Assembly: GCA_963666485.2 (NCBI GenBank)
Contig: CAXXUO010000002.1
Span: 64,001-128,000 of the forward strand
Reading direction: 5' to 3'
DNA length: 64,000 nt
DNA from: Syntrophorhabdaceae bacterium
GTDB lineage: Bacteria > Desulfobacterota > Syntrophorhabdia > Syntrophorhabdales > Syntrophorhabdaceae
This document shows positions 16,898 through 64,000 of the stretch, in pieces (the first letter of the stretch is position 1; each line of letters starts with the position of its first letter). The notes below the pieces were generated by a model. The model searched no databases. It worked only from the letters and a program-made list of their open reading frames with translations, and was not told the DNA's origin. The translations under genes were made by a program, and so were the position numbers.

Positions 16898-16974
16898 GCG
16901 CCCGTAGCTCAATTGGATAGAGTGTTGGACTACGAATCCAAAGGTTAGAGGTTCGATCCCTCTCGGGCGCGCCA
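16898..16974 (+). tRNA. tRNA-Arg (anticodon ACG)
   Basis: 77 nt; acceptor GCGCCCG/CGGGCGC; anticodon arm TTGGA-CTACGAA-TCCAA; GTTCGA T-loop; encoded CCA. Confidence 0.97.
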
Positions 16975-17052
16975 ATACTTTCAATGGTTTACAAGCAATG
17001 CCCCGGAAAACACTCCTTCTTTCCCCAACAGTCTCCCCAACATTAGGGCAAT

Positions 17053-17078
17053 AAAAAAGCCCCCTGTTTCCAGGGGCC
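17053..17078 (-). terminator. Intrinsic terminator-like hairpin; a related one lies at 17171-17200
   Basis: Minus strand CCCCTG-GAAA-CAGGGG then GCTTTTTT. Confidence 0.55.
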
Positions 17079-17306
17079 GTGTGCCACTTTGGCAGCTATA
17101 AAGGGGTGGGACCAAAGTCTCGCGATCGATTGATAGTCAAGCGTTCGCATTAACTAAGCTTTCGCAGAATAAAAAAGACCCCAGTTTTGCCGGGGCCTTT
17201 ACCATAGACGTATATCACACATTGATAAAAGCTGAAGTGCATCAATGTTTCAGATTAACTTTACCGACACGGAAATGACTGCAACAATGCGCGCAGAATT
17301 AAATTA

Positions 17307-17459
17307 ATGATCGCTACCGGTTACAACAGCGAGTCCCTCTCCCCCAGAAAAGTAAAAAGGTACGGCATCAAGAAATTGCTGACGAAACCCATCTATAGAA
17401 AGGAGATGGCGAAAGCCATCCAGGAAGTGCTCGATACATCAGTCGCTATTACCAATTAA
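17307..17459 (+). pseudogene. C-terminal fragment of a receiver (REC) domain
   Basis: IATGYNSESLSPRKVKRYGIKKLLTKPIYRKEMAKAIQEVLD resembles the end of the hybrid kinase at 49704 (LCTGHSE...FLMKPLTRHELASAVRRVLD). Confidence 0.6.
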
Positions 17460-17663
17460 AGGAATCCTGTCCACCAGAGCATAAGCGCCATGGGCGCCAG
17501 AAATAAATATCCGGAAGGTAACCCGCATGTAAAGAACCCAGGGGGAGTTCAGTGCCAATCAGGTCCCCTTCCCCTCTCCCAAAAAAGAATGCTTTTTTCA
17601 GGTCGTCGGGGTGTCCGGTTTATATGGAGCCACTACAAAGTCATCTCTATCAACAACTGGGTG

Positions 17664-20600
17664 TCAACAGGCTTCGTCGTCCGGGGTTTTTCTGAACCTT
17701 CCATACCTCAATGCCAGGGTGGGCAGAATGAGAAGATTTAAAGTTGTCGACGTCGTCAGTCCTCCGAGAATGACGATTGCCATGGGCCCTTCTATCTCTC
17801 GTCCCGGGGCGCCGCTGCCTATGGCCAGCGGGAGGAGCCCAAGACCTGTCACGGTTGCGGTCATGAGGATTGGCGCTAAGCGTTCGGAGGCGCCCCGGAT
17901 GGCCGCGTCAATACCCCAATCCATGCCCTCGACCACTACAAGGTGCTCGTAGTGCGAGATCAACATTATTGAGTTTCTGAGGGTGATGCCGAAGAGGGTG
18001 ATGAACCCCACGAGAGGACCGAGAGACAGCATGCCGCCCATGGCGAATACGGTCAGGACGCCGCCGACCAGGGCGAAGGGCACATTTGCCAGGACAAGCA
18101 GGAGATTCCGGGAATTCATCATCACGATCGACAAAAGCAGGATTATCCCTAGCCCGGCCAAACCCGGAATGGACGACCAGATCACGGCGCGATCTGGCCT
18201 CGGCCGCTGCGGTGCCGCCGAAGTCGACGTAGCTTCCCGGCGGGAAGGCAACACTTGAAACGATGCGCCTTCGGGCTTCATCGACGAACTTGTCTGCGGG
18301 GACCCCGGAAACATCGCAGGTGATCGTTTGTACGCGACGCGCACCGTCGTGCAGGACCATGGACCGGCCGGACGTTTCGTACACAGACGCAAGCTGGCCG
18401 AGCGGAACGTAGGCACCCGATGGGCCGCGAAGAGGGAGGGCGGCAACTGCGTCAATTGCTCTGCCGCTCCCGCGGAGAAAGGATCACGGTCACGTCGAAG
18501 ACGCGGTTTCCGTCGTACACCTGGCCCGCCGTTGTCCCGCGAAACGCCGTCCCCATAGCGTCCATGACCGTCACCGGGTCGAACCCCCAGCGTGCCACGT
18601 CGTAAGGACGCAGTTCGATTGCGACCTGCGGGGCCCCCCCGGAGGGGACTGCATCTGAACGCCCCTTGCCCCGGGCGTGCCGGCAAGGATCCCGCGCCGC
18701 CTCGCCTGCCTGGCGGTCCAGCTGTTCCAGGTCATTTCCATAGATATTCATCACAACGTCAGCACGATAGCCCGAGAGTGTCTCCTCGATCCGCTCGGTG
18801 AGGAAGGTTTTCAGCGCGAAGTTCACGCCTGCGAATTGTCCGAGGGCCTTCTGGATGTCTGCCTGTGCCCGCTCGGATCTCCCCCTCGGTGAGGTTCGGC
18901 TTGAGATCGACCCTCGAATTCGCTGGAGTTCGTGCTGAAGACGTCGGCCTCGGCTTCGGCCCTTCCGACCCTTTGAGCAACGGACCTGATATTGGGGATG
19001 CCCTTGAGCGCGCTGGCTACCAACGTCCCGATGCGGAGCGATTCACCGAGCGAGGTCCCCGGGACGGCGGACACGTGAAGGATGAAGTGGCCTTCACTCA
19101 GTTCCGGCAGAAAACTTGGGCTGAAAAAAGGGGATCGCCGCCATGCTGAGCACAGTGATAACGACGCCGGCAAGAATGATCGCCCGCGGTGACCGGCCCA
19201 CCGTGAGAAGGAAGAGAACGGTACCTCTTCTTGAGAAAGCGTAATCAGGGGAGGGTCCTCGTCTTTGAGCCCGCCCCTTCCGAGGAAAATGAAGCAGAGT
19301 GGCGGCGTCACCGTGAGCGCGATGGCCAGTGAGGCAAGGATGGAAAGAATGTACGCGATGCCGAGGGGGGCGAAGATCCGTCCCGCGAGGCCCGACATGG
19401 TGAGGACCGGAACGAATACGAGCGCCACGATGAACGTGGCGTACACGACAGCGCTTCGCACCTCGATGGACGCATCGAAGACGACGCGGATCGCCGGCCG
19501 CGGGTGAGGATCTCTGCGGTTCTCCTGCAGGCGCCTGAAGATGTTCTCCACATCGATGACCGCATCGTCGACCACCTCACCGATGGCAATGGCAAGCCCG
19601 CCGAGGGTCATCGTGTTGAGCGTGAACCCGAGGCGCTCCATTACGGTCACCGCCATGAGAAAGGGATAGCGGGATGGCCGTGCACGAGATGGCGGCCGTG
19701 CGGAAATTGAAAAGGAAGAGGAAAAGCACGAGAACGACAAGGACCGCCCCGATGATCAAAGACGTACGGATGTTGGCAAGCGCGGTTTCGATGAAATTGG
19801 CGGGGCGAAAGAGGTCAGACCGGACCTCCACTCCTTGCGTTCCGAGGGTGGCCTTAAGTCCGCCAAGGGCCTTTTCGACGGCATCGGTCACCTCCCGGGT
19901 ATTTGCACCGTACTGGGCCTCGACCATGAGGATGACCCCCGGCTTACCATCGATTGCCGCTGCCACCAAAAGCGGGTGCGGGCGCTTCGGGCGACGTGTG
20001 CCAGTTGCCCCAGGGTCACGTTCACACCGTTCTGTTGCGCAACGACGGTAGCCGCGATCCTTTGTGGGGTAAGAGCCTGACCTTCCGCCTGCAGGACCCA
20101 GGCGCTGGTTGCCCGTATCTATGAAACCGGCACCGACAACGCCCGTGGCACGGCGGGCCGCGTTCAGAACGTCGTCCATGGCCACGGCATATTGCGTGAG
20201 GCTTTCCGTAGCGACCTGGACCTGGTATTGCTTCACATCCCCGCCGAAGACCGCAACATTGGCGACGCCCGGAACGGAGAGCAGGCGCAAACGCACTGTC
20301 CAGTCCGCGATGGTCCTGAGTTCCATCTGCGTTAACGTGCCTGACGTGAGGCCTACGGCCAGGACGGTGCTGGTTGAGGATGTAAGGGGCGTCATGACGG
20401 GGGGCTTTGACTCCCCGGGGCAATTGGCTGAGCACGCGGGTCAGGCGCTCGGCCACCACCTGCCTCGCCCGGTAGATGTCCGTCCCCATCCGGAAGGTCA
20501 TAGTTATCACAGAGAGTCCCTGGATGGAGCCGGAGCGAAGGGATTCTATCTCCGGCACCCCGTTGATGGTTGTTTCAACGGGCGTGGTGACAAGGAGTTC

Positions 20601-20786
20601 CACCTGCTCCGCCGAGAGGCCCCCGGCGCTTCCGTCTGGATCTGCACCATCGGTGGAGCAAACTCGGGGAATACATCGTATTTGGCGTGGGACAAGGTAT
20701 AAAGGCCATATCCGAGAAGCGCAAACGCGAGGGCGATGGACGATGCCCCGGCGGTGAAGGGAGAACCAAACGATACTATTGAGCAT
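17664..20786 (-). pseudogene. CusA/CzcA family RND permease broken by many frameshifts (decay or sequencing error)
   Basis: Fragments in different frames: YDVFPEFAPPMVQIQTEAPG, NTMTLGGLAIAIGEVVDDAVIDVEN, ERLAPILMTA. Confidence 0.8.
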
Positions 20787-21848
20787 GCCGGCCTCTCACT
20801 CGCCTTCCGTGTCCCACCTGGATCCGGGAGCGGAACATCTCCGATAAAAGCTGCTGTGCCCCCTTCACGACGACCTTCTCTCCCGGGGAAAACCCTTTTG
20901 CTGCGACCCACCCGTTATCGGCCGGCAAGTCGGTAGGGACAATACGCTGGACGAACTCCTCCGGCCCGGTTTGAATATAGGCCCACGCCCTGCCCTGCCA
21001 CCACACAGCGCTCGATTGGGGGATAAGAACACCGTTAACAGGCGGACCGGAAGGGAAGAAGGCAACGAGATTCATCCCGGGAATCAACCCCCGGGTATTC
21101 TCCGCTGCATACAGGTAGCCCGGCGCCTGTATGCGCGGATCGAGACGGGGAAGAGGGGACACCAACCGCGCAGTGATGTTCTTTCCCGGCAAAACCAAGT
21201 TTAACGGTCTGAGGCGCCGTTACCTCAACTCCTGCGGGGGGCGTCACCTGAATCAGGAGATCTTCTTGAGCGACGAGCTTGCGAAACCGGGAGGAATCGG
21301 CGATCAACCATCCTGCGACGACAGGACCCCATTGCTGGCGCACACCGCTCTCCACGAGCGTCAGGGAATTCCGTGCGGCGTTGACGGTTGCGCGATCGGA
21401 GCGTGCTGTTCCTTCCGCGGCCTCAAGTGCCTTGAGGGAGGCATTTCGGTCCTCTTTGTAAAGGGCCGACAACCGTTCGTATTCTGCATTGGACACGGCG
21501 AGAAGGTTTCGCGCTTTTTCGAACTGCGCCTTTGCAGTGACATAGTTTGTCCTCAGGGTGTTCAACTCCTGCATGGACAGCACGATGGCCGCACCGCGCA
21601 CCTCCTGCCTGCTCACCGCCACTTCCAATGCCGACACTGCAATCCCGTTCTTTGCCGCCTCTTCGGCGGGCATCCTTATCGTGATCACGCCGTGTGCCGT
21701 GCTTACCCTCGCCGTCGCCTTGACGGGACGTTCGCGCTCAGCCTCTGTCTTTAGTGCATGACGGCCGTGCAGAAAACCCCAGACGAGCGCCGCAACGGCG
21801 AGGGGCGACCACGATGACAAACAGTGTGCGTCTTGTTCTTGCGTTCAT
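20776..21848 (-). pseudogene. RND membrane fusion protein, frameshifted
   Basis: Coiled hairpin in 21035-21820; C-terminal part in 20776-21198 (GVLIPQSSAVWWQG...GEKVVVKGAQQLLSE). Confidence 0.7.
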
Positions 21849-23266
21849 TTAAGGCCGCTCCTTGAGCATGTCTGCGGCAGGCTGATCGGACGAAGGGAGC
21901 CCGCGAACCAGCCAGGTGGGTTCCAGGGGTTTCTGAACAGCATTTTCGAGGGCGCCAAGAGACGCCTGAGCACGGTCGAGCGCCGTCAATTGCGCCCGTG
22001 CCGCTACTACGGTCTGCAGGGCGCTACCTGTCAATGAAAGCCTGTCACTCTCACCGTGTTCGAAGGACCGCTTCGCGAGCACCTCTTTATCCCTGGCCAG
22101 TTTCAAGGCTTTTGAGGCTTCGGCGAGTTCGACCAGCGCCGACCGGTATCCGGCGAGAGCCCTTGCCGTTTCACCGATCACCTGTGCCTGGAGCGCGAGG
22201 AACCTCTCCTCGGCCTGTTTGCGCCCGGCCTCAGCCTCTGCGATCGGTCCCCGGTTGCGGCTGACAGGCAGCGTGAGAGAGACGCCGATGGTGTATTTGT
22301 TCGTTCCGGTGTCGAAGTTGTAGCCCGGCTGCCAGTCGATATTCGGGTACTGCTTCGCAATTTCCAACCTGTAAAAGTTGCCTCCGAGACTGCATACTCG
22401 GCAAGGGAACGCCTTATATCGAGCCGGTTGAGCACGGCAGCCCGCTCAACCTCCTCGAAGCCGGGGGCGACTGCAACAGGATGGTCGAATCCCGGCCAGG
22501 AGAGTTCAATGTTTTCAAAGGCCGTCACGGATACGCCGATAGCGGAGGCAAGATCGACCCTTGCCTGTGCAAGCCGACCCTCGGCCGTATGGATGGCAAG
22601 CCTCGCATTAGCGAGCTCGATGAGTGCGGTGTCGAGGTCGGGTCGCGGGATCTCACCGACATCGAAACGCCGTTGTACGAGCTCCGCCATTCGTGTCCGC
22701 AGCTCCTCTTCCGCGCGAAGCAGATCGACATTTCGTTTCGCTATGAGAAGGTTTGCAAGCGCGAGGCGGAGCCGGGCACGGACCTGCCACGCAACTTCCG
22801 CAAACTGGATCCGGGCCGCGTCGACTGACCTTTCGGCGACCTGAACACGCAGATCACGCTTGCCGGCCGTTTCCATGGGAATTGTCGGGACAATGGAAAG
22901 TATCCAGGGGTTTGGCGGGTTGTTGAATGCCCGGCCGACAGCGGCAGCAACGCGAGGATCAGGACGCTGTCCTGCGGTGATGACCCTTGCTTCGGCGAGC
23001 CTGACACCCGCTGCCGCGAGTGCGAGGTCCTGGTGATAGTAGAGCGAGGCGAGGGTGAGTATCGAAGGGTCCCACATGGCGGGTGGCCAGGATGGAAGGG
23101 CATGGCCCAAGTTTTGTTCCACGAAGACCCTCAAGCCGGGATTGTCCAGGGCTCGTTTCTCGAAACTCTTCGCCGTGTTCACGGGCGAAATCGGGTTGGG
23201 CCGGTAGACTGCACAACTCCAGATTGCCATTGCAATCAAGACAATTGCGAGACTGACCTTCATCAT
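21849..23266 (-). pseudogene. TolC/CusC family outer membrane factor, frameshifted near 22370
   Basis: Lipoprotein-like leader (WSC); two ORFs give the N- and C-terminal halves of an OEP protein. Confidence 0.75.
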
Positions 23267-23493
23267 AAGAGTATCTAATCATTCGCGGTAGTGGCTACAA
23301 GAGACGGCAGGCATTAAACAATATCCCTATAGACAGTGCCTCTCATCTGCATGGGCGCATCTTGCGTCTATTGAGGATCTTTTCGTTGTAATTGGGCCAA
23401 TGGCCCGATTAATTTTTGGTATATCCGGTCGTTCCGTATTGTGTATCGGGTACGGACACTTTAAAATTAGAAAAAGCAGAGAGGTGACGTATC

Positions 23494-23946
23494 ATGAAAA
23501 GATTTTTTGTAGTTTCAACAATAGTTTTGGCCGTCATTTTCTTATTTCTTTCCGGCCTGTCCTTTGCACAGGGGAAAAAGGGGGGAGGAGGCTGGGGTCC
23601 GGGAACGGCGTATAACAGGCTGTACGATCCGAACACCATGGAGAAATTGAAGGGGGAGATCGAAACAATAGAGCCGTTTACCCCCCGTAAAGGCATGAGC
23701 CAGGGAATTCACCTGGTCCTGAAGACTGACACGGGATCGATCCCCGTTCAGCTGGGACCATCCTGGTACATTGAAAAGCAGAACCTTACATTGACGGTTG
23801 GTGATAAGGTTGAAATAACCGGTTCGCGGGTCACTTTTGACGACAAACCCGCTATAATCGCTGCGGAGATCAAGAAAGGCGATAAGGTTTTAAAACTGAG
23901 AAATCAGGATGGTACACCGGTATGGAGCCGCCGGGGATCGAGATAA
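23494..23946 (+). CDS. Secreted small OB-fold-like protein
   Basis: GAGG RBS; signal peptide; VQLGPSWYI...GDKVEITGSRV...LRNQDGTPVW. Confidence 0.75.
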   Translation: MKRFFVVSTIVLAVIFLFLSGLSFAQGKKGGGGWGPGTAYNRLYDPNTMEKLKGEIETIEPFTPRKGMSQGIHLVLKTDTGSIPVQLGPSWYIEKQNLTLTVGDKVEITGSRVTFDDKPAIIAAEIKKGDKVLKLRNQDGTPVWSRRGSR

Positions 23947-23980: not shown

Positions 23981-25681
23981 CTATTTTTCCCGATGGAAAG
24001 GCCAGGCCATGAGGCCCCCTTCCATCACCTTCACATTCCTCCAGCCGTTCGCCTCCAGGACACGGGCAGCTTCGTACCCGCGGAGAGATATCTTGCAATA
24101 GCAGATTATCTCCGCGTCCCTATCCTGCGGAAGCTCGTTGAGCCTCTTACGAAGCATTCCGATAGGGATAAGTGTCTCGCCTATCCCAAGGCGCATCTGT
24201 TCGTACTCATCAGGGCCGCGTGCATCGAGAAAGAATGCCTTCTCCCTGTTGTCTATTTTTTTCTTCACATCCGCACACGAGATGCCTTTCATGAACCCGC
24301 GCATTTTATTCTGGATGATATGCGCAGAGGCTATGCCATGATCGATCGCCAATGAGAACGGAGGGGCATACGGGAGGTCAGCATTGATCATGTCATCGAT
24401 GGTCAGGGACCCCTTGATCGCCATTGCCCATTGAGCGATCTGCTTGCTGACGTCCCCAAGGCCAACGCATTGGGCGCCCAGCACACGTCCGGAGGACCTT
24501 TCGACGACGAGCTTCGACACGAGCATTTTCCCCTGCATGAAGCCGGGTTTATCGGGACTAGCATTTATCACGGTCTCGATATCCATGAATCCCGCGTCCC
24601 GCGCTGCCTTTTCCGAGAGCCCCGTCGATCCGGCCGTATAATCGAAGACCTTGCATATGCCCGTCTGGATCGTCCCCGGGAAACTGGCCCGGTTGCCTGC
24701 CGCTGCGTTTTCTCCCGCCACCCTGCCCTCGAGGTTGGCAAGATCACCGTAGGGCGCGAGGACCTTTTTCCCGGTGATAAGGTTCGTCACCTCGATGCAG
24801 TCGCCGACCGCGTATATATCGGGGTCAGATGTCTGCATGTAACGATCGACAGCGATACCGCCCGTCTCTCCGATCACTATTCCTGCATCCCGGGCAAGCA
24901 TGGTATTCGGGCTGACTCCTATCGCAACGACCGCCAATTCACAGGGAAGTTCGGTTCCGTTGCTGAGCTTGACCCCGGTGAGCCTGCCGTCCTCGCCGAG
25001 GAACGCGGCAAGTCCATTTTGTGTAATGACATTGGCATTTCTGCTCTTCACATGGTTCTCGACAAGCTTTGCCATCTCCCAGTCGAGAAACGTGAGGAGC
25101 TGGGGAAGAAGCTCGACGATCGTGATCTCGATCCCGGCGAGCTCGAGCGCCTCGCTCGTCTCCATGCCGATCAAGCCGCCGCCGATTATGACAGCCTTCC
25201 TGATCCTGCGTTCATCCCGCACACGCCTTAAAAAATCGGCATCCCGCATAGACTGAAGGGTCGTTATACCGGAGAGTTCGACTCCGGGAACCCGGGGATA
25301 CCGGGGAGAGGAACCTGTCGCCAGGATGAGCTTGTCGTAGCCGACCTCCTCGGTCTCTCCCGTGACGAGGTCCCGGCATGTTACCCGTTTTTCCTGCCTG
25401 TCTATATGGACCGCCTCGGTCTGGGTCTTCGCCACGATACCCTTCGCGCTTATGTAAAATTTCGGGTCCCGCGTCACGCCTGTCGGCGTGGCAAGAAGCA
25501 TGTTCCTGTCGTCGAAAACACCGCCGACATAATAGGGATACCCGCACGATGCCATGGAGAGGTCCGGGTCTTTCTGGATAATGACGATCTCCGCCTCTTC
25601 GTCCATTCTCCGTGCCCGCGCGGCAGCTTTGGGACCCGCGGCAGAACCGCCTATCACGACTATTTTTTTTCTGTCATTCAT
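23981..25681 (-). CDS. CoA-disulfide/persulfide reductase-rhodanese fusion (CoADR-RHD/Npsr-like)
   Basis: GGSAAG FAD site, SMASCGYPY, GGGLIG, YAPPFS, C-terminal rhodanese CKISLRG. Confidence 0.88.
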   Translation of the reverse strand: MNDRKKIVVIGGSAAGPKAAARARRMDEEAEIVIIQKDPDLSMASCGYPYYVGGVFDDRNMLLATPTGVTRDPKFYISAKGIVAKTQTEAVHIDRQEKRVTCRDLVTGETEEVGYDKLILATGSSPRYPRVPGVELSGITTLQSMRDADFLRRVRDERRIRKAVIIGGGLIGMETSEALELAGIEITIVELLPQLLTFLDWEMAKLVENHVKSRNANVITQNGLAAFLGEDGRLTGVKLSNGTELPCELAVVAIGVSPNTMLARDAGIVIGETGGIAVDRYMQTSDPDIYAVGDCIEVTNLITGKKVLAPYGDLANLEGRVAGENAAAGNRASFPGTIQTGICKVFDYTAGSTGLSEKAARDAGFMDIETVINASPDKPGFMQGKMLVSKLVVERSSGRVLGAQCVGLGDVSKQIAQWAMAIKGSLTIDDMINADLPYAPPFSLAIDHGIASAHIIQNKMRGFMKGISCADVKKKIDNREKAFFLDARGPDEYEQMRLGIGETLIPIGMLRKRLNELPQDRDAEIICYCKISLRGYEAARVLEANGWRNVKVMEGGLMAWPFHREK

Positions 25682-25755
25682 TTAATCTTTCCCCTTTTCA
25701 ACAGATTCCGCATGAAGCCTATATATGCATTGAACAGCGTTATATCAATGGTTAT

Positions 25756-26265
25756 CTATTCACGCCTGGCAGGTTTGGGTCTATTCTCTTTTCCGGCAAA
25801 CCATCCCTCGCCGGCGTCGGGGAACGAATCGAAACGGGGAACGTAGGGCCTTATATCGAGAAGCGGCGTATCATCTATAATATCAAGGCCCTTCACCTCG
25901 AGCCTGTTTGCCTCCCTCTTCATTAGCCGGACGATATTTATCCCAATATAGTTGGGCCGGGCGGGATGGCGGGATGCAAAAATGCCGTGGGGCAGATCAT
26001 CGAGCAACATCGGCCGCACCATCTCGACAGGTCCGGCCCTGTCCAGGAGATAGATAAGGTAAACGTGCGAGAACTTTTCAATGTCTTGCAGGCCCTCGGC
26101 ATATTCCGGGAACACCTCGACCCAACCTGTCATGTCGGGCCTGAATATGCCCTGGATGGGTGCCTCATCCTTCGTTTTATAGGGGGAATGGATGATGCCC
26201 AGCGGCACCAAGTTGCTTTTCATTACCATGTGCCCGTCCCTATGATCATAAAATATTATCCCCAT
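25756..26265 (-). CDS. tsaA: TsaA/TrmO family SAM-binding methyltransferase (start may be ~26223)
   Basis: GIIHSPY, GIFASRHPARPN.IG, GLDIIDDTPLLDIRPY. Confidence 0.85.
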   Translation of the reverse strand: MGIIFYDHRDGHMVMKSNLVPLGIIHSPYKTKDEAPIQGIFRPDMTGWVEVFPEYAEGLQDIEKFSHVYLIYLLDRAGPVEMVRPMLLDDLPHGIFASRHPARPNYIGINIVRLMKREANRLEVKGLDIIDDTPLLDIRPYVPRFDSFPDAGEGWFAGKENRPKPARRE

Positions 26266-26337
26266 TTCCCAGGCAGGTGCGCCGCATCTGATATTTTACG
26301 GCAATCACTATACGAAAAATTATGATGGAACTGTCTA

Positions 26338-55181: not shown

Positions 55182-55220
55182 TGATCCGGCCGGTCGTGAG
55201 AATATTCAAGGAGGAATAAC

Positions 55221-56489: not shown

Positions 56490-56528
56490 CCAGGCTGCTG
56501 ATCCAGGGAAATATGGATAGGACGTATC

Positions 56529-56551
56529 TACGACCAAGGTCCCATAGACGA
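56529..56551. promoter_or_regulatory. Putative response-regulator box, copy 2
   Basis: TACGACCAAGGTCCCATAGACGA. Confidence 0.55.
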
Positions 56552-56671
56552 GATTTTTTCGTTCACCTAGACTTCTACGGAACATCGGCCGGTGCGGGTC
56601 GATCGATGAGTTAAGGATAGAGGCCCAAGGACAACTCCGATACGGGTCCTTAAACCAGGGAGGGAGAGCTC

Positions 56672-56974
56672 ATGATGAAACATGTGTGCATGAACGTGGT
56701 AGCTGTGATCGTATTTACCTTTGTCTTCACGGCAATTGCCGGGGCCCAGCAGTTTCCCCTGCTGGATGACGTGGCGAATAAGGTTGTCCAGAAATACCAG
56801 CAGTCCACCTGCCAGCAGTTGTGGCAGGAGAAGGCCTCGCAAAAAGCGAAATCCGAAAGGGAAGAAAGGCTCGTACAGCTGCTGCGGGACGACCCGGCGA
56901 TGCGCGCCGAATTCTTCAACAGGGTGTCCGTGCCCATCGCCACGAAAATGTTTGAATGCGGAATGATCCCATGA
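56672..56974 (+). CDS. Small secreted protein with two Cys
   Basis: Signal peptide; KYQQSTCQQLW...KMFECGMIP. Confidence 0.75.
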   Translation: MMKHVCMNVVAVIVFTFVFTAIAGAQQFPLLDDVANKVVQKYQQSTCQQLWQEKASQKAKSEREERLVQLLRDDPAMRAEFFNRVSVPIATKMFECGMIP

Positions 56975-57903
56975 TGCGGCTCCGCGGACCTCAAAAACAA
57001 CCTCATTATATCTCAGGTGTAGCATGGCGGCGGGGTTTGCTTTTCCTGCTGGTGCTGATTGTGCTTACCTTTGCATGCGCGGCACATGTTCATGCCGGGC
57101 AGCCGGGCAAATCAACTCAGGGTAAGAAAGCTGCAAAAAATCAGGTCGATGCGCCATCATCGCCGGCGAGGCTGGAGATAGAGCCGAAGGCGGTCGAAAT
57201 CGTCAAAGCAGCGTGCGAACGGCTGGCTACCGCCAAAACGGTGCGCTTTACGGCAATCGTCGAGTACGAGTACCCGAGCCTTCTCGGCCCCGCATTGGTC
57301 TACACGACGAGATCCGAGGTGGCCATGCAGCGGCCTGACAAGCTGCGGATAATCACGCCGGGGGACGGTCCTGCCACCGAATTCTACTATGACGGCAAGG
57401 CAATTTCCGCCCTGTCACCCGCGGAAAAGATGATCGCCGTGGCCGAGGCCCCTCCCACAATAGACGCCGCGCTGCAGGCCGCTTACGACCTGGCTTCGAT
57501 CTACTTTCCTTTCACCGACATCCTTGTTGCCGACCCGTACAAGGACCTTTCGGAAGGCCTGAGGATCGCGTTTTATATCGGGCAGTCCCGTGTGGTTGGC
57601 GGCGTGACGACCGATATGGTGGCCCTGGCGAACGATGCCGTCTTCCTTCAAATCTGGATAGGAGCGGAAGACAGGCTGCCGCGCATGGTCCGCGCGGTCT
57701 ACCGTGATGATCCGTCCCGGCTGCGGCACGGGCTCACGTTGTCAAACTGGAAACTCGATGACACCCTTCCGGCAGACACATTCACCCCGTCTGTGCCGGC
57801 GGATGCCATTTCCGTGTCTTTTGCCCGGCCTGATCCTCAACTCCCTCCCGCTCCTACCCCTGCCAGATTCAAGGAAAAGCCCAAAGCCACACCGGGAAAG
57901 TAA
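56971..57903 (+). CDS. DUF2092-like (LolA-fold) periplasmic protein
   Basis: QRPDKLR, YYDGK, APPTID, QIWIG...LP. Confidence 0.75.
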   Translation: MMRLRGPQKQPHYISGVAWRRGLLFLLVLIVLTFACAAHVHAGQPGKSTQGKKAAKNQVDAPSSPARLEIEPKAVEIVKAACERLATAKTVRFTAIVEYEYPSLLGPALVYTTRSEVAMQRPDKLRIITPGDGPATEFYYDGKAISALSPAEKMIAVAEAPPTIDAALQAAYDLASIYFPFTDILVADPYKDLSEGLRIAFYIGQSRVVGGVTTDMVALANDAVFLQIWIGAEDRLPRMVRAVYRDDPSRLRHGLTLSNWKLDDTLPADTFTPSVPADAISVSFARPDPQLPPAPTPARFKEKPKATPGK

Positions 57904-58195
57904 GGAGATACCAGATGAATATCAAAAAAGCGGTCAACCAATGTATCCCGGTTATCGCCATTTTTTTGGTACCGCTCTTCGCGTGCGGGCAGGCGTTTGC
58001 CTTCGCACATGCTAACATCTATGGCGGCCGGACGGCCGGAACAAGCAGTTCATGGAGTCATACCGGGCGTTACGGCGGTACAGCATCGGGCGGCGGGGGT
58101 TCATGGAGCGGTACCGGGGCGCGCGGCGGTACGGCCTCGGGCGGAGGCGGCTCGTGGAGTGCAAAGGGTGAGTACGGGGGGCACGCATCCGGCAG

Positions 58196-59554
58196 GATAG
58201 TGTCAAGAATCTTTCGCACTTTCCATAGCAACCCCACTAATCCGGTTATGCCTTAATGCTCTCGATGATCTCCTGCTCAAGCCGGTCCATTTTCAGGTAC
58301 TGGCTCATTCCCCATTTGGTTCCCGCTATGTGCCTTAGCCGGGCAGCCACGAGCATGAGTGCCGACCTGCCGTCAGGGAACGACCCGACGACCCGTGTGC
58401 GCCGTCTGATCTCCTTCATGATCCGCTCCAGGGGGTTGTTGGTCCTGATCCTCCTCCAGTGCTCGCGGGGGAACCCGTAATAGCCGAGCGTCTCGTGGAT
58501 CCCCTCGTTCAGCATGTCCGCGGCCCTGCCGAGTTTCATCTCCTTGAGCTTCTTCACCACCGCCTCCGCTTTCTTCTGCGCTTCTTTCCTGTCCTCCTGG
58601 GCATGGATCGCCGTGAGCATGGCGACGACCTCCTTGATCTTCCCCCTGGGCACGACGGTGAACACGTTCCGGTAGAAGTGGACAACGCACCTCTGCCATG
58701 AGGCGTCGGGGTAGAACAGGGCGAGACTCTCGACGAGGCCCAGGCACTTGTCGGATATGAAGAGCTCCACACCCTTGAGCCCGCGCTCTTTGAGGTAGCG
58801 CAGGAAGGATGTCCAGCTGTCCTTGTCCTCCCGCGCACCCTCGGCCACACCCAGGATCTCCCGGTAGCCTTCGCGGTTCACCCCTATCGCTACAAGGACC
58901 GATACGCTCCTGACCTCCCCGCCCCAGGTCCTCTTGAGCGCTATCCCGTCGAGGTAGACGTAGGGATGCTCACCTTCGATGGGGCTTAATCTCCACTGCT
59001 CGATCGTGGTGTATATCTTTGCGTTGAGGTTCGAGACGGTGCCGGGGCTCACCTTCGTGCCCCAGAGGGCCTCCGTGATGTCCTCGACCCTCCTTACCGA
59101 CACCCCGGCCAGGTACATCTCGACGAGGGCCTCTTCCACGGATGATTCCCTTCTTTTGTACCGTTCGATGATCGCGGTCTCGAAGGGAAGCGACCTCAGC
59201 TTGGGCATCTTGATGTCCACCTCCCCCGCCTTCGTCTGGAGGGTTCGGGTATAATGGCCCGCCCGTGTGTCCCTGCGTTCCTCCGTGCGCTCGTACCTCT
59301 GTGCGTTGCACAGGCGGGACGCCTCTTCATCGAGAAGTGCATTGAGCGTCTCCTGCACCGTTCCCCTTACGATCTCTCCCAGGTGGTCCTTTATCTGCGC
59401 CTCATTAATCTGGATTATCGTGCCGCCTTCTGTGGTAGACTCTTTCTGGGCCATGGTTCTTCCTCCCTCTGGTTTTTGTTTTGTGTGGTGCTTAACACTA
59501 CCAGATTCGAGGTTGCCATGGCTCTTAAATGTGCGAAAAATATTTTACGTTATC
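58196..59554 (-). mobile_element. IS256-family insertion sequence, 1359 bp
   Basis: Imperfect ~27-bp TIRs (GATAGTGTCAAGAATCTTTCGCAC / reverse complement GATAACGTAAAATATTTTTCGCAC); 8-bp TSD TCCGGCAG at 58188-58195 and 59555-59562. Confidence 0.95.
58246..59454 (-). CDS. IS256-family transposase
   Basis: MYLAGVSVR, YVYLDG, ISD, WQRCVVHFYRN, RTNNPLER. Confidence 0.95.
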   Translation of the reverse strand: MAQKESTTEGGTIIQINEAQIKDHLGEIVRGTVQETLNALLDEEASRLCNAQRYERTEERRDTRAGHYTRTLQTKAGEVDIKMPKLRSLPFETAIIERYKRRESSVEEALVEMYLAGVSVRRVEDITEALWGTKVSPGTVSNLNAKIYTTIEQWRLSPIEGEHPYVYLDGIALKRTWGGEVRSVSVLVAIGVNREGYREILGVAEGAREDKDSWTSFLRYLKERGLKGVELFISDKCLGLVESLALFYPDASWQRCVVHFYRNVFTVVPRGKIKEVVAMLTAIHAQEDRKEAQKKAEAVVKKLKEMKLGRAADMLNEGIHETLGYYGFPREHWRRIRTNNPLERIMKEIRRRTRVVGSFPDGRSALMLVAARLRHIAGTKWGMSQYLKMDRLEQEIIESIKA

Positions 59555-60289
59555 TCCGGCAGCGGCGGATCGTCGAGCGGGACATCTGCCTATGGAGGCA
59601 GTTACTCGCACACAACGGGACAAGGGACAACTGCTGCAAACCGTTATGGCACGACTGCCACCCATACCTACGGTTCGGGCTCAACCACTGCCACAACTCA
59701 GTCGGGCGCGACTGCGACGCATTACTACGGCGCCGGGACAGTTGCAACGAGTCCGACCGGCGCGACGGCTTACCGCCCGCCCGTTCCGCCACCGACCCCT
59801 TACTATGGCGCAGCCTATCCGGCGTCCTATCATCCGCCTGTTGTCGTCAATACCTATGGCAACGGGTGCTACAATTGTGGAGGCTGGTCACCGGCCGGTG
59901 CAGTTGCTGCAGGAGCAGTAGTCGGCGTGGCCGTAGGTGCGGCTCACGCATCCTCGAACACGGCCGACGCAACAACCAGCGCCTATAATGCGGGAGTTGC
60001 AGCAGGCAGCGCGAACACTGCTGCCGCGACAACGAAAGCCTACAACGCGGGTGTCGCGGCAGGCACGGCGACAAACTATGCGGCGGGGGCTATTTATCCC
60101 ACGCTGCCGGCAGGCGCCACTCCGATCAAAAAGAATGGGACAACCTACTACCTCAGCGGCAACACGTGGTTCCAGCCTTCCTATGGGGCAAACGGGGTTT
60201 ATTACCGCGTGGTACCGACGCCTTAAAAAGATAGAGAAAACTGATCCACTGCTTAGCTAAACGGAGAACGGAATATGCGATAAACCTAG

Positions 60290-60329
60290 CGAATCCAAAG
60301 GTCAGAGGCCCGATCCCTCCCGGGCGCGC
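60290..60329 (+). repeat. att junction 5: degenerate 40-bp tRNA-Arg 3' copy (4 mismatches)
   Basis: CGAATCCAAAGGTCAGAGGCCCGATCCCTCCCGGGCGCGC. Confidence 0.85.
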
Positions 60330-60345: not shown

Positions 60346-61572
60346 TTATTCATATCGCAATGCATCGATCGGCTCTTGTCGTGAGGCCTTTAATGCCGGA
60401 TACAATCCGAATATGGCTCCCGTTGCGCCTGCAAAGCCAAATCCGACAACTATATCCGAGATATGCGTGACAACATGCATATCATATAATTTGGATATTG
60501 CCGCACAGCCCACCACTCCATAAAAGATTCCCATCATGCCGCCCGTCATGGAAAGCACAGCCGCTTCCATTAAGAATTGAATACAAATATTTGCCGGGGT
60601 AGCCCCGGCGGCCATTCTTATGCCTATTTCCCGCGTCCTTTCCGTTACCGAAACCAGCATAATATTCATAATACCGATTCCACCAACCAAGAGTGCTATT
60701 CCGGCTATGAAACCGAATATCATTTTCAAGGAATAACTCATATAATCCATGATACGTAGGACATTGGCCAGATTCCGGACATCGAAATCCTTTTCACGCT
60801 TGTATGTTTTGTGCCGCTGACGCAAGAGATTGTTGATTTCTTTTTCGGCAGAATCCATTATCTCGTGCCCTTTTGCTTTGACCATAACCCAGTGCACCAT
60901 ACCGGGAAAGCTATTGCCCAATAATTTTTTCTGAGCCGTTGTTATGGGAACATAGATCATATCATCCTGGTCCTGGGCTGTTAACGATTGACCCTTTTTA
61001 AACAGCACGCCCTTAACTTCGAAAGGGACCCTGTTGATCCGAATTATCTTATTAACAGGATACGTTCCGGGAAATAGTTTTCGTGCAACCGTGTTTCCTA
61101 TGACGCATACTTTGTTTGAATTCCGTACATCTTCGGATGTAAATGGCAAGCCGATCTCTAATTTCAAATCCTGTATGTTAAAGATTCCAACATCCGAACC
61201 GGTAACGGATGTTGTCCAATTTACATTACCAAATACAACCTGGGCCGCACCTCCCATCATGGGGGTAGAATCCGCTACTGCGGGACATTCTTTTTTTATG
61301 GCCTCGGCATCTCCCAGTGTAAGCGTGGGCTGCGTCCCCATTGCCATTTTAGCGCCCCGAGACGATGAATTGCCCGATATAACAATAAGAATATTACTCC
61401 CCAGGCTGGAGAATTCGGCCCGTATCATCTGTCCCACATAATTCCCGAATGAGAGCATCAGAACAATTGAAAATACCCCGATGACAATACCGGTCATAGT
61501 CAGACTCGAACGCATTTTATTAGCGAACAATGATTTGACCGCCGTCCGGAATATCCAAAGATAATTATTCAA
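60346..61572 (-). CDS. MacB/FtsX-family ABC permease (TTG start inferred)
   Basis: NKMRSSLTMTGIVIG, VGGIGIMNIMLVSVTERTREIGIR, PIDALRYE. Confidence 0.9.
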   Translation of the reverse strand: MNNYLWIFRTAVKSLFANKMRSSLTMTGIVIGVFSIVLMLSFGNYVGQMIRAEFSSLGSNILIVISGNSSSRGAKMAMGTQPTLTLGDAEAIKKECPAVADSTPMMGGAAQVVFGNVNWTTSVTGSDVGIFNIQDLKLEIGLPFTSEDVRNSNKVCVIGNTVARKLFPGTYPVNKIIRINRVPFEVKGVLFKKGQSLTAQDQDDMIYVPITTAQKKLLGNSFPGMVHWVMVKAKGHEIMDSAEKEINNLLRQRHKTYKREKDFDVRNLANVLRIMDYMSYSLKMIFGFIAGIALLVGGIGIMNIMLVSVTERTREIGIRMAAGATPANICIQFLMEAAVLSMTGGMMGIFYGVVGCAAISKLYDMHVVTHISDIVVGFGFAGATGAIFGLYPALKASRQEPIDALRYE

Positions 61573-61573
61573 A

Positions 61574-62290
61574 TCACATCCCGTAAACGACTTGTTTCTT
61601 CCGAGATTCAAGGATCTTGTCAAACACGATTGCGCCGTCCAGAAATCGTATTAACCGCTTGCTATATCCGGCAACACTTTCATCATGGGTTACCAGTATT
61701 ATGGTCGTTCCCGACTCCTCGTTGAGACGCGTGAATATATCCATTATTTCCCGGCTGGTCTTTGTATCAAGATTACCTGTTGGCTCATCGGCAAGCAGAA
61801 TAGGGTTGCCGGCTGCTATTGCCCGTGCAATAGCGACACGTTGCTGCTGGCCAATAGACAATTGGTTAGGATGGGCAGTTTCCCGCCTGTCAAGGCCCAC
61901 AGCCTCAAGGGCTATCCGGGCTTTTTCCCGCCGCTCGGCAGCGGGAACACCCCGATAAAAAAGAGGCATCCCGACATTATCCAGCGCAGAGGTGCGCGGC
62001 AAGAGGTTAAAACCCTGAAATACAAAGGAAATTTGCCGGTTGCGAATATTGGCCCTTTCGGTTCTGCTCAGGTGGCTGAATTCTTTCCCTGAGAGATAGT
62101 ATTGGCCTCCCGTAGGAGAATCAAGAAAGCCGATGATGTTAAGCAACGTAGTTTTGCCTGATCCCGATGGACCCATAATGGAAATAAACTCCGATCTCCC
62201 GATAGATAAAGAAACATTATCCAGAGCTCGCAATTGCACATCTTCGTTTATTTGATATATCTTGGTTATATTTCTGATTTCTATAAACAT
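61574..62290 (-). CDS. MacB/LolD-type ABC ATPase
   Basis: GPSGSGKT, LSIGQQQR, LLADEPTGNLD, VTHD. Confidence 0.92.
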   Translation of the reverse strand: MFIEIRNITKIYQINEDVQLRALDNVSLSIGRSEFISIMGPSGSGKTTLLNIIGFLDSPTGGQYYLSGKEFSHLSRTERANIRNRQISFVFQGFNLLPRTSALDNVGMPLFYRGVPAAERREKARIALEAVGLDRRETAHPNQLSIGQQQRVAIARAIAAGNPILLADEPTGNLDTKTSREIMDIFTRLNEESGTTIILVTHDESVAGYSKRLIRFLDGAIVFDKILESRKKQVVYGM

Positions 62291-62297
62291 ATCTCGA

Positions 62298-62450
62298 TCA
62301 CCAGCCCCCTAAAGGCAAAGTTGGGTCAGTGAGCGGATTATAAACGGCAAGAACTGGCACCGCAGCGGGCCAGAGCGAAAAAACAAGGCCCATTGTGCAT
62401 CCGATGATCAGAACTGCTCCAACTAATATCAAGATAGTAGACAATCTCAT
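62298..62450 (-). CDS. Small hydrophobic peptide (50 aa), paralog of 62519-62710
   Basis: MRLSTILILVGAVLIIGCTMGLVFSL leader shared with the upstream ORF. Confidence 0.65.
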   Translation of the reverse strand: MRLSTILILVGAVLIIGCTMGLVFSLWPAAVPVLAVYNPLTDPTLPLGGW

Positions 62451-62518
62451 TTTAATTTCTTTAATGAATTCATCACGGAATATGTCAAGAACAATCCCCA
62501 AATTGTAATGGCGCTGAC

Positions 62519-62710
62519 TCAATCAGAAGGAAAAGGGACATCAGTCTGCTGCACAATCGCACCATTACTGAGCTGTAGCGCTGGATGAAATTGGCCGATC
62601 TGAGCGGCGATAACCGGCGCGGAGGCAGGTGATAATGTAAAAACAAGACCCATCGTGCATCCGATGATCAGGACTGCTCCAACTATTATCAGGATAGTCG
62701 ATAATCTCAT
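62519..62710 (-). CDS. Small hydrophobic peptide (63 aa)
   Basis: AGGAG RBS; MRLSTILIIVGAVLIIGCTMGLVFTL. Confidence 0.7.
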   Translation of the reverse strand: MRLSTILIIVGAVLIIGCTMGLVFTLSPASAPVIAAQIGQFHPALQLSNGAIVQQTDVPFPSD

Positions 62711-62719
62711 AAATATCTC

Positions 62720-62890
62720 CTATCCACCAATGATCGGGTCCCATTCGGGATACCAGTACCGTAACACCACGCCTGAAACTACCGCTGCCACACCCACGAC
62801 AATTCCTACCACCAACAGGATTACTAAAATTGAGCCTTTATCCCGGTACAGCGGTGCCAACAGATGGTTCTTTATTTTTGTCAAACTCAT
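62720..62890 (-). CDS. Small single-TM peptide (56 aa), possibly pilin-like leader
   Basis: GGAGG RBS; ...YRDKG-SILVILLVVGIVVGVAAVV... Confidence 0.6.
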   Translation of the reverse strand: MSLTKIKNHLLAPLYRDKGSILVILLVVGIVVGVAAVVSGVVLRYWYPEWDPIIGG

Positions 62891-62916
62891 AGCCAACCTC
62901 CTCGTATTCAAGTATT

Positions 62917-64000
62917 TCATCTCGACGGTAATTCCAAAACTTTTTTCTTTTTTGCCACATCAACTATAACGCTCTGACCATCGTATAATTCCCCGCTTTT
63001 CATCTCAGTGTATTGATTATCGCTTAGCCCGGTTTTAACCTCGATCCTTTGTAATTTCCCTCCTTCCAGAATCCAAACGCCCGGCTTACTGTCGGAATTC
63101 TTCCATGCCATATCCTGGCCCGCAGGAATAAAACGAAGCGCGGCGTTTGGGATTCGAAGAGCATTGTCAGACCTGTCAATCTTGAATTTTACGTTCGCCG
63201 TCATGCCCGGTCGTAATTTTTTTTCCTTATTGTCTACTTTGATTACCACGATATACGTCACGACATTCTGCACCGTAATCGGCTCGATCCTGACCTGGGA
63301 TACTTTTCCGTGGAATATGGTGTCTTGGTAAGAATCGACGGTAAAATCCACATTTTGGCCCGGAGCAATCAGGGATATGTCGGACTCATCGACATTCGCT
63401 TCGATCTGCATTTGATCGAGGTTTTCGGCAATGCTGAACAAATTCGGTGTCACGAAGCTGGATACGACTGTTTGGCCGACATCGATGCTCTTCGAAATAA
63501 TGGTTCCGTCTATAGGCGACACTATACGCGTATATCGAAGATTAGCCTCGGCGGCCTTCACCTGTCCCATAGCCTGAGCTGCCTGGGCTCGTGCAGCATC
63601 AAGCTGGGCCAGACAGGATTCATAATTCGTTTCGGCTGTATCCAATTCCTGTCTCGCAATCAGATCCTGGGACCATAGTTCCTTGTATCTACCCCTGGTC
63701 CTTTTGCTATCCAGGAGAGCAGCATTACATTTTGAAATGTTGGCCCGGGTTGAAAGATGATTTGCTCTGGCCTGTTCCAATTGGGCCTCATACGTAGATG
63801 GATCTATCTGTGCCAATAACTGTCCTTTTTTCACGGGACTGTTATAGTCAACAAAAATCCTGCTGATAGTCCCGGTCACCTGAGCACCAACCTTGACCGT
63901 TGTCACTGCGTTCAACGTTCCGGTTGCAGTTATTACCTTTTCAATACCTCCCCGCGAAATAGATTCGGTTATATAGTGTGGTTTATCTTTAGCGGTAAAT
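62917..64000 (-). CDS. MacA-type efflux membrane fusion protein; N-terminus outside the window
   Basis: VKVGAQVTG, VKKGQLLAQID, IVSPIDG, GQTV, LRPGMTA. Confidence 0.9.
   Translation of the reverse strand, partial: FTAKDKPHYITESISRGGIEKVITATGTLNAVTTVKVGAQVTGTISRIFVDYNSPVKKGQLLAQIDPSTYEAQLEQARANHLSTRANISKCNAALLDSKRTRGRYKELWSQDLIARQELDTAETNYESCLAQLDAARAQAAQAMGQVKAAEANLRYTRIVSPIDGTIISKSIDVGQTVVSSFVTPNLFSIAENLDQMQIEANVDESDISLIAPGQNVDFTVDSYQDTIFHGKVSQVRIEPITVQNVVTYIVVIKVDNKEKKLRPGMTANVKFKIDRSDNALRIPNAALRFIPAGQDMAWKNSDSKPGVWILEGGKLQRIEVKTGLSDNQYTEMKSGELYDGQSVIVDVAKKKKVLELPSR

Follow-up and report, generated by a model that had tools for sequence, protein, structure and literature searches.

tRNA-Arg(ACG) and Its Displaced 3' Halves

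The stretch of DNA analysed here, referred to as the window, is 64,000 nt long and belongs to a Syntrophorhabdaceae genome (G000; 3.77 Mb in 10 contigs, 99% complete), where it occupies positions 64001-128000 of the 669-kb contig C2. It contains a single tRNA gene, an intact tRNA-Arg(ACG) on the forward strand (16898-16974), on which ARAGORN and Rfam agree. This gene is the sole ACG isoacceptor gene of the genome and marks the attL side of an array, in which about 43 kb of genes with signalling, efflux, envelope, and sulfur/Fe-S roles are gathered behind one tRNA gene and divided by five displaced copies of its 3' half (F1 to F5).

All five copies lie on the forward strand. F1 (33732-33775) matches tRNA positions 32-75 with 100% identity. 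F2 (40333-40374) is 97.6-98% identical and can be followed back to 40329 with two mismatches in the anticodon loop. F3 (43674-43710) covers positions 41-77 at 100% identity. F4 (44763-44802; 90-92% identity) is decayed, and F5 (60290-60329; 90%), the final copy on the contig, has a mutated T-loop; these two copies have diverged from the tRNA by 8-10%. The spacings along the array are 16803, 6597, 3336, 1094, and 15527 nt. A sequence-only reading of this DNA had reported five direct copies of the 3' half at these positions, and BLAST of the tRNA and a repeat finder recovered all five.

Compared with the whole genome, the fragment copies give BLAST E values of 9e-19 to 8e-7, far above chance. 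A profile built from the copies finds seven sites at E 5e-16 to 1e-12, and its next match is merely another tRNA-Arg (E 0.011). A sixth fragment copy, 40 nt long and 100% identical, lies on contig C3 (171978-172017; 171975-172018 by the profile). Beyond F5, neither BLAST nor the profile search found a further copy on C2, and the profile revealed no more-decayed fragments. Since the next profile match is only a different tRNA-Arg, the array ends at F5 on C2.

All six fragment copies are in one register and in direct orientation. Their identity to the tRNA begins at position 32 in F1 and F2, at position 36 in F4, F5, and the C3 copy, and at position 41 in F3; four of the five window copies thus begin at position 32 or 36. 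This onset supports the conclusion, also drawn in the sequence-only reading, that what remains here are displaced 3' halves of the tRNA, such as tyrosine integrases leave behind when they cross over at the anticodon loop. The extents given there for F1 and F2 were too short. Both copies are preceded by about 27 nt that resemble the tRNA 5' half in degenerate form (16911-16972 compared with 33717-33775, 90% over 62 nt). The two also share a flank that continues about 100 nt ahead of this 5'-half-like stretch (33603-33775 compared with 40202-40372, 90% over 173 nt).

Recombinases and Relaxases

A six-frame search at E<=1 with the tyrosine integrase family PF00589 gave six matches in the genome, none of them on C2. 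The serine recombinase family PF00239, searched at the same threshold, gave two matches, both on C3 and none on C2, and the relaxase family PF03432 had no match in the genome. When six integrases of this genome, the tRNA-Leu integrase of the relative G009, and the tRNA-Arg integrases of the relatives G009 and G003 were used in tblastn, no match appeared in the window even at E 5-10. Scans of the open reading frames (ORFs) of the window with Pfam, PHROGs, and NCBIfam showed an IS256-family transposase as the sole mobility gene. PHROGs and NCBIfam also gave no mobile-element match for the 22 unassigned ORFs, and only a weak MamS-like match was obtained. The IS256-type transposase (58246-59454) was borne out by PF00872.

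The sequence-only reading had stated that no segment carries an integrase, a serine recombinase, or a relaxase, and that an IS256 element is the only recombinase. Both statements stand: hidden Markov model and tblastn searches detected none of these enzymes in the window, and the ORF scans found no mobility gene other than the one matched by PF00872. It had further placed the missing integrase either beyond the window or elsewhere, acting in trans. The first location is not supported by the search within and beyond the array, which returned no integrase or serine recombinase match at E<=1 on all 669 kb of C2. The second fares no better, as no cognate enzyme was detected in the genome and the tRNA-adjacent recombinases sit at other tRNAs. 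The three tRNA-adjacent tyrosine integrases of the genome are found at tRNA-Cys/Gly, tRNA-Arg(TCT), and tRNA-Arg(CCT), and none is found at Arg-ACG, Leu-TAG, or Sec.

A large serine recombinase on C3 (169641-171308) was considered as a trans-acting enzyme and rejected, as nothing ties it to the Arg sites. This protein of 555 aa is composed of Resolvase, Recombinase, and zinc-ribbon domains. The 3' end of its gene overlaps tRNA-Ser(TGA), and for this reason that tRNA is likely its own site. The gene is followed by a Cro/CI-type HTH gene and then by the stray 40-nt Arg(ACG) half (C3:169566-172017 in all). The stray fragment lies 670 nt from the recombinase and is followed by a PIN-like remnant, an AcrB gene, a 65-nt motif described below with a Leu-like fragment, and an IS256 copy. 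This part of C3 looks like another scrambled graveyard of elements.

The Same tRNA Site in Relatives

Nineteen genomes of the genus were compared, and the DNA downstream of the tRNA was examined in 10 of them. Upstream of the tRNA, an aspartase/fumarase-type lyase gene and a dicarboxylate symporter gene are syntenic in the genus-mates at about 74-78% nucleotide identity. Downstream, the locus is highly variable between relatives. The same 427-aa gene stands behind the tRNA in six of the 10 loci, mostly directly, but after an island in G009 and after 7.9 kb in G018. In the two of these loci that were scanned, it encodes a DctM subunit of a TRAP transporter and is followed by DctP. Behind DctM/DctP, the relatives carry genes for a sigma-54 regulator, a kinase, and a flavoprotein, the last of which has its G000 orthologue at C2:205712-207265. 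Judged by this synteny, none of the G000 cargo is the ancestral neighbour of the tRNA.

Integrase-bearing islands occupy the same site in two relatives. In G009, an 8.7-kb island runs from tRNA-Arg through genes for an N4/N6 methylase, a SmaI-like nuclease, a relaxase, a NikA-like protein, and a 399-aa tyrosine integrase to an exact Arg 3' fragment. In G003, one of two relatives closest to G000, a gene for a 369-aa tyrosine integrase lies 41 nt behind tRNA-Arg(ACG). This gene opens an island of more than 20 kb, with HTH_3, HTH_17, DUF3854, and restriction/defence genes after it. The two integrases are 31% identical to each other, and a third relative, G015, contains a 2.9-kb integrase-less island at tRNA-Arg that ends in an exact 43-nt fragment. 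tRNA-Arg(ACG) is therefore a real target that has been used repeatedly in the genus by at least two distantly related integrases. Within G000, extra partial copies were found for seven of the 48 tRNA genes, namely Cys, Leu-TAG, Sec, Arg-ACG, Arg-CCT, Arg-TCT, and Lys-CTT.

A 65-nt Motif at Element Ends

The flank shared by F1 and F2 begins with a 65-nt motif (TGTAACTATTTTGTAAC...) that holds two TGTAAC half-sites 11 nt apart. It forms the right ends of segments 1 and 2, the segments being the stretches between successive copies. On the forward strand, the right end of segment 1 (33603-33731) consists of the motif (33603-33668) and then the degenerate tRNA-Arg 5' half (33705-33731), and the right end of segment 2 (40202-40328) consists of a second motif copy (40202-40267) and a degenerate 5' half (40302-40328). 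Other copies in G000, at C1:822697-822759 and C3:177808-177870, lie about 75 nt upstream of a tRNA-Leu fragment and of a degenerate Leu-like fragment, respectively. Altogether, the motif stands 50-75 nt upstream of the displaced halves of three tRNAs (Arg-ACG, Leu-TAG, and Sec). It is present in seven of the 19 genus-mates, there upstream of Leu or Sec fragments, and in none of 21 more distant relatives. When one genome per species was scanned for the exact pattern, seven stretches were returned, of which six belong to metagenome-assembled genomes of the source group and one to a Clostridia genome without similarity beyond 18 nt. In these searches, the full motif was confined to the genus.

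On contig C115 of G009, the motif closes an intact 7.2-kb element at tRNA-Leu. This element contains, in order, tRNA-Leu, a gene for a 374-aa integrase that is convergent with the tRNA, an HTH gene, a gene for a 552-aa protein, a CHC2 primase gene, small ORFs, the motif, and the Leu fragment. In G018 and G014, remnants of the 374-aa integrase family directly follow Sec fragments, and G000 itself retains a 128-aa integrase remnant behind a Sec fragment (C3:194672-195055). Integrase decay beside fragments is therefore seen in sister arrays. The motif may be an arm-type binding region of this integrase family, and the degenerate 5' half may represent the element's side of attP.

The combination of the motif and a degenerate tRNA 5' half is a new detail that is common to elements targeting the Arg, Leu, and Sec tRNAs. 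It can be extended to a wider hypothesis for Syntrophorhabdus, in which one motif-marked family of small tyrosine-integrase elements has been re-targeted to at least three tRNAs (Arg-ACG, Leu-TAG, and Sec-TCA). Its integrase-less arrays would then form a genus-wide pool of modules, such as a glycosyltransferase pair that moves between tRNAs and species, and would be served by whichever integrase-bearing member is present. This hypothesis is tentative and, in our judgement, decidedly unlikely as a whole. If it were true, the pool would be a distributed, tRNA-anchored counterpart of gene-cassette exchange. If the motif does mark one integrase family that switches tRNA targets, it would offer a natural series for how the site specificity of integrases changes.

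Genes Carried in the Segments

The segments are 1.1-16.8 kb long and multi-gene, with genes on both strands and regulators of their own. Segment 1 opens with a non-coding left end (16975-17663) that contains a terminator-like hairpin and in which tblastn with integrases detected no integrase remnant. This end is weakly similar to the flank on the right of F3 (16938-17063 compared with 43674-43796, 76% over 127 nt including the fragment). It is followed on the reverse strand by an RND efflux operon (17664-23266) with AcrB pieces in several frames and an outer-membrane factor. The operon region (16975-23425) has a GC content of 60-63%, compared with a genome mean of 54.5%, and had no match in the 19 genus genomes at E<=1e-15. 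A forward-strand gene for a 150-aa exported protein with weak MamS-like similarity (23494-23946) comes next. Its homologue lies about 6 kb behind tRNA-Arg in G015, and the gene adjoins the CoA-disulfide reductase gene in both G000 and G014.

The rest of segment 1 is a reverse-strand Fe-S/sulfur block (23981-32765), which encodes a CoA-disulfide reductase-rhodanese, a TrmO-like protein, IscU/NifU, Mrp/NUBPL-NifX, two MinD/CbiA-ferredoxin ATPases, a DUF5320 protein, a rhodanese, a DUF134-NifX protein, and an enoyl-CoA hydratase. The block matches 18 of the 19 genus genomes at 69-85%, collinearly and with core-like divergence; the core baseline, taken from the DNA upstream of the tRNA, is 75-78% for G003 and G014 and 69-76% for G018, G012, and G009. 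In G018, G009, and G012, the block lies between the orthologues of C2:611730 and C2:611773, positions separated by only 43 nt in G000. There it forms part of a stretch of about 16 kb (G018:C1, G009:C38, and G012:C16), and G003 has it in a third location. The block has moved repeatedly within the genus. Neither a tRNA fragment nor the 65-nt motif was found near it in those relatives.

Segment 2 (33776-40201) carries two PAS/GAF/Cache histidine kinases on the forward strand, which have paralogues (74-83%) at C2:148-154 kb. Its first 165 nt (33776-33940) resemble, at about 82-85% identity, the DNA behind a tRNA-Arg(TCT) fragment on contig C11 of G014 (L133 9834-10040). This likeness is a second hint that element ends may have recombined with different tRNA halves. 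Near the start of the segment, a stretch of about 370 nt (34209-34579) recurs as 74-83% copies in at least four other places of the genome (C2:150104, C1:841647, C1:1113749, and C10:83311) and on many contigs of G007; no family could be assigned to its two overlapping ORFs.

Segment 4 (43711-44762) holds a reverse-strand pentapeptide-repeat gene (43823-44278) and a scrap of a CBS-domain gene (44456-44721), which represents the 270-bp 3' end of that gene and stops 40 nt left of F4. In G003, the full CBS gene is convergent with the CoA-disulfide reductase gene at a distance of 50 nt, and the two are also neighbours in G011. In G000, the two sides of this junction are 20 kb apart and permuted.

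Segment 5 (44803-60289) contains genes for an SdpI-like protein, hybrid PAS histidine kinases, LuxR-type and single-domain response regulators, three unknown proteins, and a DUF2092 protein, as well as the IS256-family element. The cluster of kinase, regulator, and unknown genes is conserved in the genus at 65-77%. The IS256-family element (58187-59554) is 100% identical to three other copies in the genome (C1:987716, C3:178078, and C3:204907), and four identical copies suggest that it is currently active. Two of the four copies lie within 0.9 kb of a tRNA fragment. Past F5, the reverse strand encodes a MacB permease, an ABC ATPase, and an HlyD-type adaptor (60346-64000) at a GC content of 43-48%. 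These genes and the DUF2092 gene had no match in the five genus genomes searched. Given the low GC content and the missing genus matches past F5, foreign-looking DNA extends to about C2:130 kb.

Two families of short repeats were also noted. A tandem repeat with a period of 22 nt (CGTAAGGCGTAAGGCGTGAGCG...) forms an intergenic element of about 80 nt at 53082-53159 and 7532-7566. It also occurs elsewhere in G000 (C2:37765-37934, C1:672379, and C1:1230283) and, at 88-92%, in G002 and G007. A 40-nt repeat resembling repetitive extragenic palindromes lies in both orientations between genes upstream of the tRNA (8634-8674, 8772-8811, 11428-11468, and 13999-14037).

Segment 3 and Its Recent Exchange

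Segment 3 (40375-43673) is an envelope-glycosylation module composed of a membrane protein gene and a gene of glycosyltransferase family 2 (GT2). The reverse-strand gene (41238-42890) encodes a 550-aa membrane protein of a large Desulfobacterota family without a Pfam model, for which one UniRef name reads 'Glycosyltransferase RgtA/B/C/D-like domain'. The divergent GT2 gene (42959-43684, forward strand) is cut by F3. The two look like an envelope-glycosylation pair, a function suggested by family names only. A kinship between the 550-aa protein and the 552-aa protein of the G009 tRNA-Leu element was considered and rejected, as the two are unrelated.

Most of the segment (40589-43653) is 95-96% identical to a stretch of G012 (C6:4477-7892), although the G012 core is only 66-75% identical to that of G000, which points to recent exchange. 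In the array, the common part begins 215 nt past F2 and stops 20 nt short of F3, and no att sites enclose it in G012. The G012 copy is flanked by a transposase gene and split by a 364-nt insert with a tRNA-Sec fragment, and further Sec fragments lie nearby. The module is also present, at about 96-97%, on contigs from two metagenomes, one from sediment and one from sludge (depth 12 and 6), where the rest of the stretch is poorly covered. The sludge contig has a genuine tRNA-Arg 5' half directly ahead of position 40329, at the left end of the segment, from which it follows that segment 3 began as an element inserted at tRNA-Arg. A metagenome scan with the 550-aa protein gave only G012-type close matches (two loci at 93%, among the 80 matches listed), and the tRNA-Arg-adjacent version was not among them.

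In both metagenomes, the similarity extends to 43673, the base just ahead of F3, beyond which the contigs continue for 755-961 nt with unlike sequence. Segment 3 of G000 is therefore a truncated piece of something longer and not a self-contained cassette. F3 starts at tRNA position 41 inside the GT2 ORF, and the GT2 homologues of the two metagenomes run past that point. By these comparisons, segment 3 of G000 was cut inside the GT2 gene by a deletion that also took the first bases of the att copy. At least the F3 and F4 junctions are deletion or rearrangement breakpoints rather than att crossovers, since F3 cuts the GT2 gene and F4 abuts the CBS scrap.

The exchange of this module raises the question of whether the array is still alive. 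Its segments could keep working att sites and be excised, reordered, and transferred whenever an integrase-bearing element of the genus lands, with the integrase acting in cis or in trans. F1 and F3 are 100% identical to the tRNA half. The segment 3 module is 95-96% identical in G012 against a core of 66-75%, occurs among tRNA-Sec fragments in that genome, and is found in two unrelated metagenomes at about 96-97% identity, once directly behind an intact tRNA-Arg. Two different integrases for the tRNA-Arg site exist in relatives, and the mechanism has been published (PMC5704250, PMC3146451). However, no integrase for the tRNA-Arg(ACG) site was detected in this 99%-complete genome. The shared part of segment 3 is not att-bounded in G012 and is flanked there by a transposase gene. 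In the metagenomes, the homology runs past F3 into unlike sequence, the G000 copy being truncated. Moreover, no joint between two fragments was seen in contigs, where rare forms are invisible. Such a living array has a small but real chance of being correct. Mobilisation by an incoming element is possible, but it is the published idea of CIMEs (cis-mobilizable elements) and accretion and would not be new.

Native and Foreign DNA in the Array

The cargo is a mosaic of genus-foreign DNA such as the RND operon, the genus-conserved Fe-S block, and the recently exchanged 3-kb glycosyltransferase module. An alternative explanation for the array is that the tRNA-half copies were spread by segmental duplication or rearrangement, either homologous or mediated by insertion sequences, and not by serial integration. 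Native blocks in the array, the CBS/CoA-disulfide-reductase junction of G003 and G011 that is split and permuted over 20 kb, the segment 2 paralogues at C2:148-154 kb (74-83%), the four identical IS256 copies with two of them within 0.9 kb of a tRNA fragment, and the Arg fragment on another contig would all agree with it. Duplication would nevertheless copy the tRNA's own flanks, but what lies left of F1 and F2 is an element end, which recurs beside Leu and Sec fragments. Furthermore, all copies begin in the anticodon loop, none has a true 5' half, and relatives show the classical layout of integrase and fragment at the same tRNA. The spread of the copies by duplication is accordingly improbable.

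Reliability of the Assembly

Short-read contigs of the probable source sample cover the window from 28 to 48 kb at a depth of 9-17. Of the fragment copies in this range, they bridge only F4 and are interrupted at F1, F2, and F3, and for this reason the order of the segments rests on the assembly itself. Between 28000 and 33653, the window differs from these contigs by one substitution and 14 one-base gaps. A further 21 one-base gaps were found in 33746-37047 and none in 40348-47999, the gap-free part in which the truncations at F3 and F4 lie. When six listed bases were removed, the ORFs 36428-37126 and 37342-37611 fused to a 410-aa frame, and the next kinase grew from 773 to 826 aa. The 'fragmented' kinases of segment 2 are thus at least partly sequencing artefacts. 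The frameshifts of the RND operon lie outside the stretch compared with the short-read contigs. For annotators, the warning is that many 'pseudogenes' of this assembly are indel errors and that polishing is needed first.

Collapsed or mis-joined repeats at the 40-170-nt copies could in principle have produced the array as an artefact, as the breaks at F1, F2, and F3 and the many one-base indel errors in the window might suggest. Every segment has a similar depth (9-17), however, F4 is bridged by one contig, and each fragment has unique flanks. The pattern of indels would also fit a long-read assembly, whose reads would span such short repeats. An array created by the assembly is very improbable. 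No fragment-to-fragment joint was seen in the contigs, which cannot show rare forms, or in a 4% sample of one unrelated raw-read run with the same species label, in which only nine reads matched and which is therefore uninformative on this locus. Joints such as those from 34372 to 47057 and from 37041 to 42992 were considered as excision products and rejected, as their sides are shorter than 30 nt and lie in paralogous kinase genes.

A Probable Decayed Tandem Accretion

Taken together with the integrase-bearing islands of the relatives, the array is probably a decayed and rearranged tandem accretion of tRNA-targeting elements whose integrases have been lost, which leaves CIME-like remnants. 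According to this proposal, elements with tyrosine integrases would cross over in the anticodon loop, and each would bring a replacement tRNA 3' half, in some cases with a terminator-like hairpin. Each insertion would shift the previous 3' half distally, and the elements would stack in tandem. Their integrase modules would be deleted later, which would turn them into att-flanked, integrase-less remnants. Later scrambling would include deletions into att copies, the insertion of IS256, and the relocation of native DNA. We infer both the order of these events and the loss of the integrases by deletion. Judged by the types of junction, at least two element families contributed, one represented by F1 and F2 (position 32, motif, and degenerate 5' half) and the other by F4, F5, and the C3 copy (position 36).

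Several observations weigh against this proposal. Even at E<=1 or with relaxed tblastn, none of the five segments yielded an integrase remnant, so the loss of the integrases is inferred rather than seen, and five clean losses are many. The perfect match of F1 and F3 to the functional tRNA (100%), and the 95-97% identity of segment 3 to DNA of other hosts, mean that some of the array must be young or still undergoing exchange. Pseudogene decay as a sign of old islands had to be withdrawn, since at least the six frameshifts checked in segment 2 proved to be assembly errors. Independent contigs do not confirm how the segments are ordered across F1-F3. Finally, the genus-conserved Fe-S block and the kinase cluster of segment 5, both with core-like divergence, lie inside the array. 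Native DNA cannot come to lie between the tRNA and its displaced halves by simple accretion, and extra relocation or capture events, which could not be reconstructed, are therefore needed.

Comparison with Known Systems

Mobile integrons possess intI, attI, and attC cassettes, most of which are single promoterless ORFs that each end in attC. The array resembles them in outline only, with repeated sites in one orientation and variable genes between them. The sequence-only reading had taken this outline, to which the high variability of the locus among relatives may be added, as a sign of a dedicated integron-like platform for gene capture, in which a fixed site is loaded with cassettes. In contrast to integrons, no intI, attI, or attC hairpin was detected, and searches of the contig revealed neither an IntI-type nor any other tyrosine recombinase. 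What is repeated is a tRNA half with element-derived flanks and not attC, and the segments are multi-gene blocks of 1-17 kb with regulators and genes on both strands. In addition, the same pattern occurs at six other tRNAs, and two of the junctions are breakpoints. Every integron feature tested was absent from the locus, which contradicts the integron-like reading and makes it exceedingly unlikely.

Glucosylation (gtr) modules sit beside the att site of serotype-converting phages. Segment 3 is similar in that a GT2 gene and a gene for a large, glycosyltransferase-like membrane protein lie beside an att site. It differs in that neither a GtrA-like flippase nor phage genes were identified in it.

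CIMEs and tandem accretion were first described for elements related to ICESt1 and ICESt3 of Streptococcus thermophilus, according to a review of integrative mobilizable elements (PMC5704250). The route outlined in that review consists of integration, decay to a CIME that keeps attL and attR, and accretion of a newcomer (PMC5704250). In the present array, fragments flank every segment, and in G009 and G003 integrase-bearing islands occupy the same site. The window has no PF00589, PF00239, or PF03432 match, its ORF scans revealed no such domain, and a remnant of an element backbone gene was found in none of the segments. As in the CIMEs of that account, integration and transfer genes are absent, att copies are kept, and stacking takes place at the 3' end of the target gene. 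Unlike the Streptococcus CIMEs, the array has five att copies, no integrase-bearing member, a tRNA target in a syntrophic deltaproteobacterium, and native DNA inside.

At the ssrA gene of Dehalococcoides, tandem islands are described within 100 kb downstream, bounded by 20-bp direct repeats of the 3' end (McMurdie et al. 2011, PMC3146451). Fifteen of these islands lack an integration module and were proposed to be CIMEs, some of them possibly fixed (PMC3146451). As far as that description goes, both arrays have tandem segments behind one small-RNA gene, direct repeats of its 3' end, and extra conserved nucleotides beside the repeat. The Dehalococcoides system, as described, uses a tmRNA gene, a 20-bp repeat, and the serine recombinase DsiB next to attL, whereas the present array has tRNA-Arg, repeats of 37-46 nt from the anticodon loop, and tyrosine integrases in relatives.

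The Islander database, as presented by its authors, recognises an island by a regenerated tRNA gene together with a displaced fragment and an integrase, and it admits a tandem only when every member has an integrase of its own (Hudson et al. 2014/15, PMC4383910). Among 3919 islands, it contains 125 tandems of at least two and four tandems of at least three, and 2083 of the 3919 fall into the 'anticodon centred' attP class (PMC4383910). The array shares with these islands an intact tRNA gene, co-oriented displaced fragments, and the anticodon-centred class of crossover. None of its five segments has an integrase of its own, and by the rule given in that account all of them fail the filter. This is a warning for island finders that require an integrase, which would miss every segment here.

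It can be concluded that the array is another case of a known kind, represented by the CIMEs of Streptococcus and the ssrA arrays of Dehalococcoides, and not a new integron-like system. It provides a clear example, in a little-studied syntrophic anaerobe, of one tRNA gene that gathers diverse cargo, and it indicates that such arrays can hold relocated native DNA and not imports alone. Two features are worth a second look: the motif-marked element family, which may switch tRNA targets, and the relocated native DNA within the array.

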